NCBI GenBank assembly: GCA_963753285.1
Contig: CAVWBT010000010.1
Location: 240,481-304,480, forward strand
Origin: an uncultured bacterium
GTDB lineage: Bacteria > Actinomycetota > Acidimicrobiia > Spongiisociales > ZC4RG35
Length of the DNA stretch: 64,000 nucleotides
Direction of reading: 5' to 3'
A program made the translations under genes and the position numbers. Shown piece after piece: positions 24,610 through 62,786 of the stretch. The notes under the pieces were generated by a model. The model was given only the letters and a program-made list of their open reading frames with translations, searched no databases and had not been told where the DNA came from. How positions within the stretch are numbered: position 1 is the first letter of the stretch; each line of letters starts with the position of its first letter.

Positions 24610-25032
24610 ATGAACGCCAGGGCGCAGCAAGCAGCACACCAGATCACCGAGGCGGGCGTCAGAACCGGCGAGCGACTCACCGATGTCGGTGAGATGATCG
24701 CCTCCGAAGCAGCCGAGATCGCCGATCGAATCGGGACTTGGCTCGCCGACAACGATCCGGTGGGCCAAGCCCGCGAGGTCGCCACAGAATCGCTTCACGT
24801 GGTCCGGGACTGGTCCTCGGCGCTTCCCGAGCGGATCGCAGCCGCACTGCCGGTCGTCGCCACGGTTCCTGCCAAGCCGAAGAAGCGGACGCTCATCGGG
24901 ATGTTCGCTCTGGGGGCGGCGGTGGCCTACTTCTTCGATCCGGCCTCGGGAGCGGCACGCCGGGACGCCGTCAAACAGCGGATTTCCGGGCTCTTCAGGC
25001 GCAACGCTCCAGATGAGGCCGCTTCGGGGTGA
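24610..25032 (+). CDS. hypothetical protein with C-terminal TM helix
   Basis: GGAGGT RBS. Helical N-terminus and one TM segment. Stop overlaps the next GTG (GTGA). Confidence 0.5.
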   Translation: MNARAQQAAHQITEAGVRTGERLTDVGEMIASEAAEIADRIGTWLADNDPVGQAREVATESLHVVRDWSSALPERIAAALPVVATVPAKPKKRTLIGMFALGAAVAYFFDPASGAARRDAVKQRISGLFRRNAPDEAASG

Positions 25033-41860: not shown

Positions 41861-41874
41861 GTCGGTATCGACCA

Positions 41875-42578
41875 GGGGGACGATCCCCCTGAACCCCCCT
41901 GATGGCATGTCCGCCGTCGGGTTGCACGGCCCGCAGCCAGCATCCCGGGTCTGTGTTGGTCTGGGGGACGATCCCCTTGAACCCCCCTGATGGCATGTCC
42001 GCCGTCGGGTTGCACGGCCCGCAGCCAGTATCCCGGGTCTGTGTTGGTCTGGGGGACGATCCCCTTGAACCCCCCTGATGGCATGTCCGCCGTCGGGTTG
42101 CACGGCCCGCAGCCAGTATCCCGGGTCTGTGTTGGTCTGGGGGACGATCCCCTTGAACCCCCCTGATGGCATGTCCGCCGTCGGGTTGCACGGCCCGCAG
42201 CCAGTATCCCGGGTCTGTGTTGGTCTGGGGGACGATCCCCTTGAACCCCCCTGATGGCATGTCCGCCGTCGGGTTGCACGGCCCGCAGCCAGTATCCCGG
42301 GTCTGTGTTGGTCTGGGGGACGATCCCCTTGAACCCCCCTGATGGCATGTCCGCCGTCGGGTTGCACGGCCCGCAGCCAGTATCCCGGGTCTGTGTTGGT
42401 CTGGGGGACGATCCCCTTGAACCCCCCTGATGGCATGTCCGCCGTCGGGTTGCACGGCCCGCAGCCAGTATCCCGGGTCTGTGTTGGTCTGGGGGACGAT
42501 CCCCTTGAACCCCCCTGATGGCATGTCCGCCGTCGGGTTGCACGGCCCGCAGCCAGCATCCCGGGTCTGTGTCGATGT
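41875..42578. repeat. tandem repeat array, 8 x 88 bp
   Basis: Units start at 41875, 41963, 42051, 42139, 42227, 42315, 42403 and 42491. They are near-identical; the first and last units are slightly diverged. The unit begins GGGGGACGATCCCC (a hairpin). There are no variable spacers. The period is not a multiple of 3. Confidence 0.9.
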
Positions 42579-42927
42579 CGGAGACGATCGATTGATGGCC
42601 TGGGTGATCGGGCGGTCAGAGGGGCGTTGTGATGCGCCGCGAGCCCTCCGGGTTCGAACCCCCCTTGGCTTGCTGGCGCAAGCCTGTTCCCCCTGAGGGG
42701 GAACGAACAACGAGTCCGTCGTTTGGGGGGCATTGTGTGTCCCCTCTCTGGGGGGGACACGCTGCCGCCAGGCAGCGAGGGGGGCGTCGGCGCCCGGGGT
42801 AGGAAGCCCCGAAGGCTTGCGCCAGGCGGCCAGGGGGGAGTTGTGGTCATGACGCAACCACATCGGTTCTGCAGCCGCGGCACGCGACCCCCTTGTGTGC
42901 GGGTTTGCCGAGTGGCATATCGAGCAG

Positions 42928-43290
42928 ATGAAGTTCAGGACGACACCGGATCTGCAGTATCACGCACGAGAGATGCGAGGGGAGATGACCGTCTCCGAGC
43001 GCGCCGCCTGGAACGAGTTGAAGGGCAAGAAGCTGGGCGTCAGGTTTCGTCGGCAGGTGGTGATCGGTCCGTACATCGTCGATTTCGCCTGCTTCGATCC
43101 GCGCCTCGCGATCGAGATCGACGACCCGTCCCACGAGTATCGAGACGAGACGGTCCGGACGTCGTACATCGAGAGCCAGGGCTTCACCATGCTCCGATTC
43201 ACCAACGAGTTCGTGGCGAAGCACGGTGTCGGGAACTCGATCGCGAACTGGCTCGAGCAGAACCACGGACTGCACCAACCCTGGCGGTGA
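42928..43290 (+). CDS. DUF559 endonuclease-domain protein (Vsr-like fold)
   Basis: MTVSERAAWNELKGKKLGVRFRRQVVIGPYIVDFACFDPRLAIEIDD is the typical DUF559 core. ATG at 42928; alternative GTG at 42895. Confidence 0.7.
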   Translation: MKFRTTPDLQYHAREMRGEMTVSERAAWNELKGKKLGVRFRRQVVIGPYIVDFACFDPRLAIEIDDPSHEYRDETVRTSYIESQGFTMLRFTNEFVAKHGVGNSIANWLEQNHGLHQPWR

Positions 43291-43459
43291 CAACCCCCGT
43301 GGCTTGCTGGCGCATTGTTTGTCCCTTCTTTGGGGGGACAGGCCGCCCTCTGGGGCGGCCAGGGGGGTGTCGTGCCGGCGGCGCCACACGCTGACACGAG
43401 CGATGGCGCCTTGGGGTGACAGCCGCCGCGTGGGAAAGGCTGCGCGTACCCTGCCTGGC

Positions 43460-44365
43460 GTGTCTGAGCTGGTTCGTGTCTTCGTCGATGTGCTCACGCC
43501 GGTGTTCGTCATCGTCGGCGTGGGCTACCTGGTCGCAGGCCGGATGAAGGTCGACGCAGGGACACTGTCGAAGCTGGCCTACTGGATCCTGGGACCGGCG
43601 TTCATCTTCGATGTGCTGGCGGGCACCGACCTCCAGGGGGACGTGGTCCTGCGGGTCGTGCTCGTGAGCCTCGCCACCATGGTCGTCACCGGCCTGGGAG
43701 CGACCGGCGTCGCGCGGGCGATGGGCAGGTCGAGCTCGCAGACGAGTGCGACGATGCTGACATCGGTTCACGGGAACGTCGGCAACTTCGGGATCGCCAT
43801 CGCGGCGTTCGCCTTCGGCGAGGAGGCGCTTCCGCTCGCCGGCATCGTGATGGTCACGGTGAACACGGCCGGGATCCTCGTCGGTGTGGCCGCTGCCACG
43901 TCCCGTACTGCGCGTCCTGCGGTCGCCGTCAGAACCGCCTTTCTCGCCCCGATGGCCTTGGCGGTCATCCCTGCGGTCATCGTCAACGTGTCGAACTCGA
44001 CGCTGCCGGTGTTCGCCGATCGGCCGATCGGGTTGCTGGCGAATGCGCTCATCCCGATGATGCTGCTCACGCTCGGGATCCAGCTCGGTCAGATGGACCG
44101 CCCTCACGTCGGTTCGGTCGTGGCGGTCCCGATCGCAGCCAAGCTCATCGTGGCGCCGTCGGTCGCGGCGCTGATCGTGGCGATCGTCGGTCCAACGGGT
44201 CTCGCCGGTCAGGTCGTGATCGTGCAGGCGGCGATGCCTGCTGCGGTGTTCACGTCGCTGGTCGCGTTGGAGCACGACATGGAGCCCGATCTGGTCACGA
44301 CCATCGTGCTCGCCGGCACGCTCGTCTCCGTTCTGACTCTCCCTGTCGTCCTCACCCTCGTCTGA
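43460..44365 (+). CDS. AEC-family (auxin efflux carrier-like) membrane transporter
   Basis: ~10 TM in two inverted halves. GTG at 43460; alternative ATG at 43403. Confidence 0.75.
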   Translation: MSELVRVFVDVLTPVFVIVGVGYLVAGRMKVDAGTLSKLAYWILGPAFIFDVLAGTDLQGDVVLRVVLVSLATMVVTGLGATGVARAMGRSSSQTSATMLTSVHGNVGNFGIAIAAFAFGEEALPLAGIVMVTVNTAGILVGVAAATSRTARPAVAVRTAFLAPMALAVIPAVIVNVSNSTLPVFADRPIGLLANALIPMMLLTLGIQLGQMDRPHVGSVVAVPIAAKLIVAPSVAALIVAIVGPTGLAGQVVIVQAAMPAAVFTSLVALEHDMEPDLVTTIVLAGTLVSVLTLPVVLTLV

Positions 44366-55426: not shown

Positions 55427-55523
55427 GGACGGCAGCCTACGGCTGCTGGCTCTTGGCTCTTGGCTCCTGGCGGGCGGTGGAGGCTTCGACGTCGTGACGT
55501 GTGACGTGAGACCCGGCACGATC

Positions 55524-55558
55524 ATCTGTCATCTGTCATCTGTCATCTGTCATCTGTC
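55524..55558. repeat. heptamer microsatellite (atctgtc) x5
   Basis: Perfect tandem copies in the divergent crcB / M23-peptidase intergenic region. gtgacgt x2 lies adjacent. Confidence 0.85.
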
Positions 55559-60787: not shown

Positions 60788-61053
60788 GCAGCTGTGGATC
60801 CGGCCTCCGGTCGCTCGGGTTGGACGAAAGGAGCCTCGTTCTTTCCCGGACGGCGCGACGCGACGCCAAACCCGGGCCCGAACAGAGTCGGAGGAGGGGT
60901 AAGACACGGCAAAACGACCGTGTTGACCGGGTCCCGGCGGGTCGATACGTTCCGCACCACAACGCCCGAGGTGCTCGGTCGTCGATCCTCCGCTCGGGGA
61001 AGTGCGGTCCGATCGTTCGACATGGGTTCCTCGGGCGTTGGCAGTGTCGACCC

Positions 61054-61689
61054 GGGGGACGATCCCCCTGGAACCCCCTGATGGCACACCCGCCCCGCAT
61101 GTCACGCGGCCCGCGGCCAGCAACCCGGGTCTGTGACATGATGGGGGCGATGTCGACCTGGGGGACGATCCCCCTGGAACCCCCTGATGGCACACCCGCC
61201 CCGCATGTCACGCGGCCCGCGGCCAGCAACCCGGGTCTGTGACATGATGGGGGCGATGTCGACCTGGGGGACGATCCCCCTGGAACCCCCTGATGGCACA
61301 CCCGCCCCGCATGTCACACGGCCCGCGGCCAGCAACCCGGGTCTGTGACATGATGGGGGCGATGTCGACCTGGGGGACGATCCCCCTGGAACCCCCTGAT
61401 GGCACACCCGCCCCGCATGTCACGCGGCCCGCGGCCGGCAACCCGGGTCTGTGACATGATGGGGGCGATGTCGACCTGGGGGACGATCCCCCTGGAACCC
61501 CCTGATGGCACACCCGCCCCGCATGTCACGCGGCCCGCGGCCAGCAACCCGGGTCTGTGACATGATGGGGGCGATGTCGACCTGGGGGACGATCCCCCTG
61601 GAACCCCCTGATGGCACACCCGCCCCGCATGTCACGCGGCCCGCGGCCAGCATCCCGGGTCTGGGCTCGCGCAGCACCGTGAGACGTGA
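61054..61689. repeat. tandem repeat array, 6 x 106 bp, related to the 88-bp family
   Basis: Units start at 61054, 61160, 61266, 61372, 61478 and 61584. They share the modules GGGGGACGATCCCCCTGGAACCCCCTGATGGCA and CGGCCCGCGGCCAGCAACCCGGGTCTGTG with the 88-bp unit. The intervening segments differ. Confidence 0.9.
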
Positions 61690-61702
61690 GACGTGAGACG
61701 TG
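61679..61702. repeat. heptamer microsatellite (gtgagac) x3
   Basis: Directly follows array 2. Confidence 0.8.
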
Positions 61703-61707
61703 CCGGT

Positions 61708-62562
61708 CTACTCGATCGTGACCGGGGTGCCGTTGCTGGTGAAACGGACGATCGGGTCGCTGCCGGCCACCGCGAGCATCGAGAAGATCGGGCGGAAGAC
61801 CACGTGGCTGCGCTCGTTGATCGCTCCGGCGACCTTCGCCGCCGGGCGTTCGCCGGTGGGGGCGTCGAGTCGAGCGAATGTGAGTTGCGCGGCTCCTGAC
61901 TCCGTTGTCGGCGCCGAGTCGGCTTCGGGGGAGGGGGCCGTGGTGGTGACCACCGGGACCGTGGTGGTCGGGGTGGGCGGAGCCGTGGTGAGCACCGGGA
62001 CCGTGGTGGTCGTGACTGGTGGAGCGGTGGTGGTCGTGACTGGTGGAGCGGTGGTGGTCGTGACGGGAACGGTGGTGGTCGTGGTCGGCGGGGCAGTGGT
62101 GGTGGTCGTCGGGGCAGGAGCGGCCGACTTCATGAAGACCACCGTCACGAACATGACGCCGTCTCCGGATCGATCGACGCCGACGCCCACGAGGTCGTAG
62201 TCGCCGAGGATGTTCGCCTTGTGGCTCGGCGAGTTCATGAACGCCTGATGGAGGAGGGTGGGATTCGGGCCCATGCCCACGTTCTCGCCGAGGAGAGACC
62301 AGCCCGACGCATAGGAACCGAGTTGGGCGGCCGTGCTGTGGAAGACCTGACCGGCTGCGATCATGTCGGCCGTGTGGACCCTGGCGTCGTCGGTGAGATC
62401 GGCGTGTCCGCCGAGCGGACTCAGCCCGGCGGCGGCCCGACTCTGGTTGATCAGCGAGATGAACTGCGCTTCGTCTCCGGGGCTCGCTGCCACGGGAAGT
62501 GCGGCAGCAGTCATCGCCATGACAACACTCAGAGTGAGAATTGCGCGAAGAATGTGACGCAT
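61708..62562 (-). CDS. secreted CAP-domain (SCP/PR-1-like) protein with Thr/Pro-rich linker
   Basis: ATG at 62562. Signal peptide, CAP motifs (HKANILGDYDLVGVGV), a TTTTTAPPTTTTTVPVTTT... linker encoded by internally repetitive DNA, and a C-terminal domain. Confidence 0.7.
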   Translation of the reverse strand: MRHILRAILTLSVVMAMTAAALPVAASPGDEAQFISLINQSRAAAGLSPLGGHADLTDDARVHTADMIAAGQVFHSTAAQLGSYASGWSLLGENVGMGPNPTLLHQAFMNSPSHKANILGDYDLVGVGVDRSGDGVMFVTVVFMKSAAPAPTTTTTAPPTTTTTVPVTTTTAPPVTTTTAPPVTTTTVPVLTTAPPTPTTTVPVVTTTAPSPEADSAPTTESGAAQLTFARLDAPTGERPAAKVAGAINERSHVVFRPIFSMLAVAGSDPIVRFTSNGTPVTIE

Positions 62563-62616
62563 AGTGAGATCTTCGACCAAATCCCCACAAACTTGAGAGG
62601 CTGTATCTACTCAGCT

Positions 62617-62786
62617 GTCCCCCACGCAAGTGGGGGAAGGGACCCGAGAGGCGAGGAACGAGCCTCACGGGTAGGGGGCGAACTCCAATTCATCCTCGTT
62701 CGCGCCACCGGCTCCGCGGAGTTGGCCCCTTACCTCCCCGGCTCGTTCCTCGCCGGGCAGGGACCTTTCCCCACTTCGTGGGGAAC
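62617..62786. repeat. MITE-like palindromic repeat element copy 2
   Basis: Two ~68-bp inverted arms around a 31-bp loop. The right arm reverse-complements to gttccccacgaagtggggaaaggtccctgcccggcgaggaacgagccggggaggtaaggggccaactcc, about 95% identical to the copy-1 arm. Confidence 0.7.

Follow-up and report, generated by a model that had tools for sequence, protein, structure and literature searches.

Two tandem arrays of a small dispersed intergenic repeat in an uncultured acidimicrobiial genome: probable local expansions rather than island boundaries

The BOX elements of Streptococcus pneumoniae and the BIME/REP elements of enterobacteria are small, modular, non-coding intergenic repeats with hairpin modules, one of which is repeated in tandem to a variable extent. 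They cluster with other motifs at the 3' ends of transcription units, and an effect on mRNA stability or on termination has been proposed. The MIRUs of mycobacteria, which are actinobacteria, reportedly consist of 40-100-bp head-to-tail units at dispersed intergenic loci, often after the end of a gene and with copy numbers that differ between strains, and are said to carry small coupled ORFs overlapping the stop and start codons of the flanking genes. A repeat comparable to these systems occurs in two arrays within the stretch of DNA analysed here, a window of 64,000 nucleotides from an uncultured member of the Acidimicrobiia.

Tandem Repeats Finder (TRF) located array 1 at 41875-42572 (period 88, 7.9 copies, 99% matches) and array 2 at 61045-61663 (period 106, 5.8 copies, 98% matches). 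Both consist of the same element, referred to as E1. Module 1 (GGGGGACGATCCCCYTGRAMCCCCCTGATGGCA) and module 2 (CGGCCCGCRGCCAGYAWCCCGGGTCTGTG) each had 14 matches in the window, eight in array 1 and six in array 2, all on the + strand, with none expected in shuffled sequence, and a profile of the family identified no E1 copy outside the two arrays in the 64 kb. E1 combines a leader of 14 nt with a core of about 80 nt, in which two conserved modules surround a variable, subfamily-specific centre of about 20 nt. The 5' module is formed by a GGGGGA-CGA-TCCCCC hairpin or palindrome and the subsequent CCCCCTGATGGC, the 3' module by CGGCCCGCRGCCA...CCCGGGTCTGTG. A first-pass annotation of the sequence had described two modules shared by the arrays in the same orientation, a differing linker and an extra 24 bp; the unit alignment agrees, placing the difference in the central ~20 nt and the 24 extra nt in the 106-bp unit. 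As the inter-unit 'linkers' of 7 or 24 nt are variants of the leader, the arrays are direct concatemers of whole elements.

E1 resembles BOX and BIME elements in being modular, hairpin-capable, tandemly arranged and located near the 3' ends of transcription units, but it is unrelated to them in lineage and sequence. BIMEs alternate the orientation of their REP units, whereas E1 arrays are strictly head to tail, all 14 units lying on the + strand, and no RAYT-type transposase was among the Pfam hits from the scanned part of the window's ORFs; the alternating orientation that characterizes REP/BIME is therefore lacking. The likeness to MIRUs and other mycobacterial VNTRs is one of arrangement: E1 is also head-to-tail, dispersed in intergenic DNA, often located past gene ends and variable in copy number, but differs by its modular core, its subfamily-specific centre, its 7-bp tails and its hairpin companions. 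Neither of the unit lengths (88 and 106 nt) is divisible by 3, and every reading frame of array 2 is interrupted by stop codons; a coding function was therefore rejected, and E1 lacks the small coupled ORFs of MIRUs. With the ToxI-like repeats of type III toxin-antitoxin systems and the tandem small RNA arrays NsiR1 and LhrC it shares non-coding units in tandem that are potentially part of one transcript. However, E1 exceeds ToxI repeats two- to threefold in unit length, and no toxin gene adjoins the arrays, array 2 being followed by a convergent CAP gene and array 1 by hairpin elements, a DUF559 gene and a transporter gene. Nor do the individual E1 units carry promoters or terminators, and the neighbouring genes change from locus to locus. 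A CRISPR-like organization was rejected, as the 'spacers' are identical within each array and no cas genes are present, and ARAGORN identified no tRNA-like gene in the arrays. Nothing relevant to E1 was found in the literature, and the sequence family appears to be undescribed, though the kind of element is known.

Array 1, which starts directly past the stop codon of the Dus gene, occupies positions 41861..42572 (+) including its leader GTCGGTATCGACCA and comprises eight 88-bp E1 units according to TRF and to module and profile searches. The six inner units are identical, while the first and the last deviate. The adjacent region 42573..42640 (+; GGAGACGATCGAT-TGATGGCC...) probably represents a degenerate, internally deleted E1 remnant, a weak assignment made by reading of the sequence; the nhmmer family profile did not detect it.

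Array 2 (61045..61663, +) consists of six head-to-tail E1 units of 106 bp, as determined by TRF, module searches and the nhmmer family profile, which recovered every unit with E values of 1e-19 to 1e-21. The cores are located at 61054-61135, 61160-61241, 61266-61347, 61372-61453, 61478-61559 and 61584-61665, all on the + strand. The six 106-bp units and the subsequent 7-bp microsatellite annotated before are confirmed, with two corrections: the array starts with a partial leader (TGTCGACC) at 61045 and not at 61054, and the sixth unit, a terminal variant, is without the 24-nt extension and has GGGTCTGGG at its end. The 5' leader of the first unit (GGCAGTGTCGACCC; 61040..61053, +) was assigned from sequence reading, a flank survey of 17 arrays and comparison with the related contig L021. 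A leader of the type GKCRGTRTCGACCN also occurs upstream of E1 in array 1 and at other loci and corresponds to the end of the 24-nt inter-unit piece. The array-2 tail (61666..61702, +) is formed by 12 nt (CTCGCGCAGCAC) and a (CGTGAGA)x3.6 microsatellite, a period-7 tract of 3.6 perfect copies at 61678-61702 (TRF) that ends 5 nt short of the stop codon of the convergent gene. The latter (61708..62580, -) encodes a Thr/Pro-rich secreted protein with a CAP domain (Pfam CAP, E=9e-9, and translation), is syntenic in L016, L017 and L021 and forms the right border of the intergenic spacer holding array 2. Imperfect 21-48-bp tandem repeats within this gene (61934-62117, - strand) encode a Thr/Pro-rich linker (TTTTAPP/VPV), and the short-read contigs of relatives L023-26 stop within this coding repeat.

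The first-pass annotation had correctly noted, as TRF and the unit alignment show, that the two arrays belong to the same family, have the same orientation and bracket about 18.5 kb, and had proposed that they might mark an island boundary or a recombination-prone region. The gene content it listed between the arrays is real, with DUF559, transporters and S8-CHAT-sigma supported by Pfam and crcB by synteny with annotated relatives. Based on Pfam hits and synteny tables, three small genes being named from synteny only, the segment contains genes for DUF559, Mem_trans, EamA, an aminotransferase, S8, TPR-CHAT, an ECF sigma factor, GFO/IDH/MocA, Zn-ADH, a ThiS-domain protein, crcB, M23, RsiG, asparaginase II, GNAT, GT4 and YbjN. 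That the arrays are att-like direct-repeat boundaries of an 18.5-kb island or excisable segment is suggested by the position of same-family direct repeats on both sides of accessory-looking genes (DUF559, the S8-CHAT-sigma cassette) and by cassettes in the segment that differ between relatives, Mem_trans, EamA and S8-CHAT-sigma being present in some and absent in others. This explanation is nevertheless hardly credible given the composition of the region. GC content is 0.65-0.69 over the whole window, neither GC nor GC skew shows a step at the arrays (41.9 and 61.0 kb), and the GC3 of genes inside the segment (0.76-0.87) equals the range of the genes outside. No integrase or transposase was found among the Pfam hits, for which part of the window's ORFs was scanned, and no tRNA is located at the segment ends, the only tRNA of the window being at 24644.

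Synteny over 42.6-61.0 kb, a check that the annotation itself had put forward, also speaks against an island, as relatives keep the backbone order in the absence of the arrays, which is essentially the outcome that the annotation had named as refuting. These relatives were identified through homologues of YbjN and Dus, and protein identity was 63-92% for the array-free syntenic ones. In none of them is the segment missing with its flanks joined; L017/L019, L018 and L016 keep the order Dus ... GFO-ADH-ThiS-crcB-M23-RsiG-AspII-GNAT-GT4-YbjN followed by CAP-SAM_HAT, and none has arrays. L017 and L019 represent one 165-kb contig (YbjN 63%, Dus 84%) with Dus-aminotransferase-S8-CHAT-sigma-...-GT4-YbjN and then CAP-SAM_HAT, where the spacers measure 30 bp after Dus and 415 bp between YbjN and CAP and contain no E1. 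Similarly, no E1 is present in L018 (Dus 92%; Dus-EamA-aminotransferase-GFO-...) or in L016 (YbjN 80%), in which the YbjN-CAP spacer is 355 bp long. Across array 2, all relatives examined retain the order YbjN, CAP, SAM_HAT. In addition, the arrays are far more alike internally, with 98-99% identity, than to each other, at only about 83%, which indicates that each was expanded in place and that they are not an att-like pair from a single insertion; the edge units of array 1, which differ from the identical inner ones, also point to independent expansion in place. The interpretation of the arrays as island boundaries is thus largely refuted. The proposed proneness to recombination holds locally, as the arrays themselves are hypervariable, array 2 being organized differently in L015, a relative with 98% ANI, and array 1 is part of an insertion of about 2.5 kb, but not for the arrays as boundaries of the segment.

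This insertion is lineage-specific and contains array 1, two hairpin elements (E3 and E2), the DUF559 gene, a second E2 and Mem_trans; it is missing after Dus in L018 and L019, and no E1 was found downstream of Dus in the relatives with 92% and 84% Dus identity. With respect to the genes next to Dus, the window (41861-44365) has array 1, DUF559, Mem_trans and EamA, L018 (11113-11250) has EamA only, and L019 (11113-11144) has neither. The S8-CHAT-sigma cassette occurs in the window and in L019 and is missing from L018.

The site of array 2 was similarly variable among relatives. It is devoid of E1 in those with 82% (L023-26), 80% (L016) and 63% (L017) YbjN identity, where merely 14-60 nt separate the closing stem of a candidate small RNA, described below, from the CAP stop codon. 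L021 (91% YbjN identity) has a single E1 of a different central subfamily at this position, followed by E2 and E3, and another E1 between CAP and SAM_HAT that is absent in the window; no E1 occurs at the orthologous sites in L016, L017, L018, L019 and L023-26. In L015, which matches the window with 98.2% identity along 13.6 kb of flanking sequence, array 2 is composed of 3 units, 4.6 heptamers, 2 units and 13.6 heptamers, as compared to 6 units and 3.6 heptamers in the window. Tandem copy number therefore varies between close relatives (6 in the window, 3+2 in L015, 1 in L021). The single copy in L021 together with the rearranged array in L015 identifies array 2 as a polymorphic minisatellite of a dispersed repeat and, as judged from these sequence comparisons, a recent one that is polymorphic within the species. 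Short-read contigs from two other samples with 99%-identical YbjN stop 345-365 nt past the YbjN stop codon, which is the start of the array; contig L029 ends inside the small RNA.

A different kind of repeat is located at the same position in L027, a 66% relative, where unrelated 17-18-bp tandem repeats start inside the 3' stem of the small RNA. Different repeats at one spot in different lineages characterize this site as a repeat hotspot. Directly past the closing stem, the repeats occupy 4726-4860 in L027 (17-18-bp repeats), 4736-4960 in L021 (E1, E2 and E3) and 61045-61702 in the window, with an E1 array also in L015. The CAP-SAM_HAT spacer of the window (62620-62700) contains another G5/C5 hairpin (CTGTCCCCCACGCAAGTGGGGGAAGG) where L021 has E1 and E2, and this spacer is variable between 91%-related genomes.

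Beyond the window, exact-pattern scans identified E1 at 14 further loci, six stretches from four species-representative MAGs and eight metagenome contigs, and gave no match on viral contigs. One of the four MAGs is labelled Acidimicrobiales, two have two E1 contigs each, and proteins of the window's relatives carry the label Acidimicrobiia. These loci yielded about 25 distinct E1 copies, single or in tandem, many of them at contig ends, as is expected for repeats. E1 is thus a dispersed repeat that occupies several unlinked intergenic loci, all between ORFs. In the other loci, tandem neighbours have unlike central regions, and the central regions fall into a few discrete types that are common to distant genomes, a pattern that fits spread from master copies and not drift in place. 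At eight independent loci, no more than about 20 nt separate the start of E1 from the end of a co-oriented gene, a tRNA-Val (L010) or a small RNA. At five loci a divergent gene start is located upstream of E1, and at two E1 is antisense within same-strand gene pairs; this non-uniform orientation with respect to the neighbours weakens a simple role as terminator or 3'-UTR. No target-site duplication and no clean insertion boundary was found, and searches for such duplications and for terminal inverted repeats were inconsistent in outcome, TCGA often being near both ends; the palindromic nature of CCCGGG makes the occurrence of GACCNGGG/CCCGGGTC at the E1 termini partly trivial.

The flank survey of 17 arrays showed heptamer tracts of the CGTG type downstream of E1 in 8 of about 12 complete arrays. 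Their sequences share the CGTG core and include GTGAGAC, GTGCGAC, GTGAGGC, GTGGGGC, GTGGAAC and others, and in L005 and L015 the tract is located inside the repeated unit. Slippage alone leaves this regular association unexplained. Period-7 microsatellites are also frequent in intergenic DNA without E1, namely at 55447-55558 in the window and in L004 (285-371), L007 (182-215 and 1074-1125), L014 (152-220 and 1691-1762), L016 (8459-8500) and L018 (14320-14354 and 17249-17287). In three unrelated loci a composite of (GTGNGAC)n and then (ATCTGTC)n was observed, and the crcB-M23 spacer has heptamer tracts of differing sequence in the window and in L018.

Upstream of array 2 and co-oriented with it, an alignment of seven taxa revealed a promoter-like site, TTGACC-N17-TACGTT (60923..60951, +). 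In each of the seven (YbjN identity 63-99%) the two hexamers are unchanged and lie 17 nt apart, the spacer sequence varies, and a generic promoter scan did not call the site. It is followed by a candidate small RNA of about 82 nt (60959..61040, +) with a 10-bp closing stem (AACGCCCGAGG/CCUCGGGCGUU), which is predicted from the alignment and from RNAalifold (28 pairs, -43 kcal/mol and some compensated changes in inner stems among six distinct sequences). Its apical region (CCGCUCGGGGAAGUGCGG) is invariant, and it is located between YbjN and the convergent CAP gene in the seven taxa. As it matched no Rfam family, 60959-61040 may represent a new small RNA, and array 2 starts directly after it.

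This arrangement raises the possibility that the arrays are multi-copy structured-RNA genes, with array 2 being transcribed from the TTGACC-N17-TACGTT site along with the small RNA and either cut into unit-length RNAs or serving as a sponge or scaffold with multiple sites; the heptamer tract would belong to this transcript. The conserved promoter and small RNA immediately 5' of the array, the conservation of both modules around a variable centre and the unrelated 17-18-bp tandem repeats after the same small RNA in the 66% relative would be in line with such a function, as would a potential of the + strand to fold into three hairpins. The evidence for an RNA structure of E1 is, however, weak. 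For 23 E1 copies RNAalifold gave support to the 5' hairpin alone, in which a few A-U pairs were changed to G-C or G-U. A three-hairpin model, hand-written and derived from the same sequences, reached 83% paired cells versus 28-54% with slid partners, but double changes were confined to three pairs, and 20 of 500 shuffles attained its covariation score, which is thus not significant, and z-scores of single-unit folds ranged from -2.2 to +0.7, not clearly better than shuffled sequence. G-U pairs are frequent, U26-G46 and G56-U77 occurring in 20 of 23 copies along with G-U variants in the 5' hairpin; as these would be A-C mismatches on the other strand, they favour the + strand, if the hairpins matter at all.

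Searches of the window, both arrays and the 14 loci against Rfam at gathering and permissive thresholds yielded no family for E1. With the Rfam 15 library, the window had no matches at gathering thresholds, and the arrays gave chance-level scores only (BLV_package, 21 bits with a threshold of 70; guanidine-II, 13 bits with a threshold of 32). Hammerhead, HDV-like, twister and guanidine-II (ACGR-loop) motifs were rejected by eye, as E1 has CUGAUGG and not CUGAUGA, GAAA is absent and the loop is not kept as ACGR in variants. The generic scan detected no promoter-like or terminator-like sites in or around array 2, so that the units are without such signals of their own, and array 1 has no promoter of this type and would merely be the 3' UTR of Dus. 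Moreover, some E1 copies are antisense to the genes around them or adjoin divergent gene starts, and relatives with 82% identity or less retain the small RNA without the array, indicating that the small RNA does not need it. Dedicated RNA genes are therefore considered an unlikely explanation of the arrays.

The same conservation of the modules in sequence without covariation could alternatively reflect recognition at the DNA level. The arrays would then be platforms for a sequence-specific protein that recognizes the GGGGGACGAT and CCCGGG modules. Such a protein could be a regulator, could act on the nucleoid or in partition, or could be a nuclease or recombinase, e.g., the product of the nearby DUF559 gene. 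The 5' module forms a palindrome of 15 bp, several loci have an additional GGGGGACGAT half-site 10-20 bp upstream of E1, which also recurs inside the 106-bp unit, and the gene adjoining array 1 encodes an endonuclease fold. But no candidate binding protein is consistently linked to E1, and a constant partnership with DUF559 was excluded, as tblastn identified DUF559 only in the window and in no other E1 locus. In addition, E1 positions are not kept in close relatives, which is a poor fit to a fixed chromosomal function, and we regard a protein platform as quite unlikely.

The DUF559 gene itself (42895..43290, +; Vsr-like endonuclease fold; Pfam PF04480, E=1.9e-26) is flanked by direct copies of a companion element, E2. 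The copies at 42731-42789 (+) and 43313-43372 (+) were identified by an nhmmer E2 profile and by comparison with Rfam, and the profile also detected an inverted E2-like copy, E3, at 42660-42710. E2 adjoins E1 in the window and in L001, L008, L010, L014 and L021. It resembles Whalefall-1 (RF01762), an orphan metagenomic motif, matching it from end to end with 21-23 bits (21.3 for 42731-42789) and sharing the two-hairpin layout and the single-stranded GACAG and CAGGG.G, but the scores are below the gathering score of 37, and a larger search recovered none of the copies from other loci at E<=0.1. E1 itself shows no resemblance to Whalefall-1. E2 may therefore be a distant relative of this motif in the Acidimicrobiia. 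The E2-flanked DUF559 gene looks like a small repeated or mobile cassette. On L028, a contig of 1.4 kb with an 89% identical DUF559, E2-like hairpins are located on both sides (1-560), and the contig breaks inside one of them; DUF559 homologues are mostly found on short contigs, and none on record is near-identical to that of the window.

The association of E1, a CGTG-type heptamer tail and E2 might also be taken to represent a class of small, mobile, non-coding elements in the Acidimicrobiia that is active and has not been described before. Such an element would be moved in trans by a nuclease or recombinase, e.g., the E2-flanked DUF559, or by an RNA-mediated, SINE-like route in which the 3' microsatellite is made at insertion, and the arrays would perhaps be read through from the promoter of the small RNA to yield a multi-unit regulatory RNA. 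No mobilizing enzyme for E1 was found, and this scenario is, in our view, very unlikely.

Taken together, the two arrays are probably local tandem expansions, i.e., minisatellites, of E1, a small dispersed repeat without coding potential that populates intergenic regions in a clade of uncultured Acidimicrobiia. E1 copies would arrive in spacers just past the 3' end of a transcription unit, Dus in the case of array 1 and the conserved small RNA in the case of array 2, frequently accompanied by CGTG-type 7-bp microsatellites and Whalefall-1-like hairpins. Once arrived, they may multiply in place by replication slippage or unequal recombination, which would give rise to inner units that are nearly identical, edge units that are older and a copy number that is polymorphic within the species. 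An effect, if there is any, would most likely be exerted at the 3' end of RNAs, where three GC-rich + strand hairpins could pause or stop transcription or stabilize transcripts between convergent genes; alternatively, E1 may be selfish or neutral.

The analysis removes a false island call. It overturns no current ideas, and its value is descriptive unless E1 moves by a new route or makes a functional RNA. It also provides pointers to a possible distant Whalefall-1 relative and to a conserved promoter and small RNA whose 3' side is a repeat hotspot. The E1 arrays account for the breaks at such sites in short-read assemblies of these Acidimicrobiia, and the E1 family, together with E2/E3 and the 7-bp tracts, could serve as a strain-typing (VNTR) marker for this uncultured lineage.
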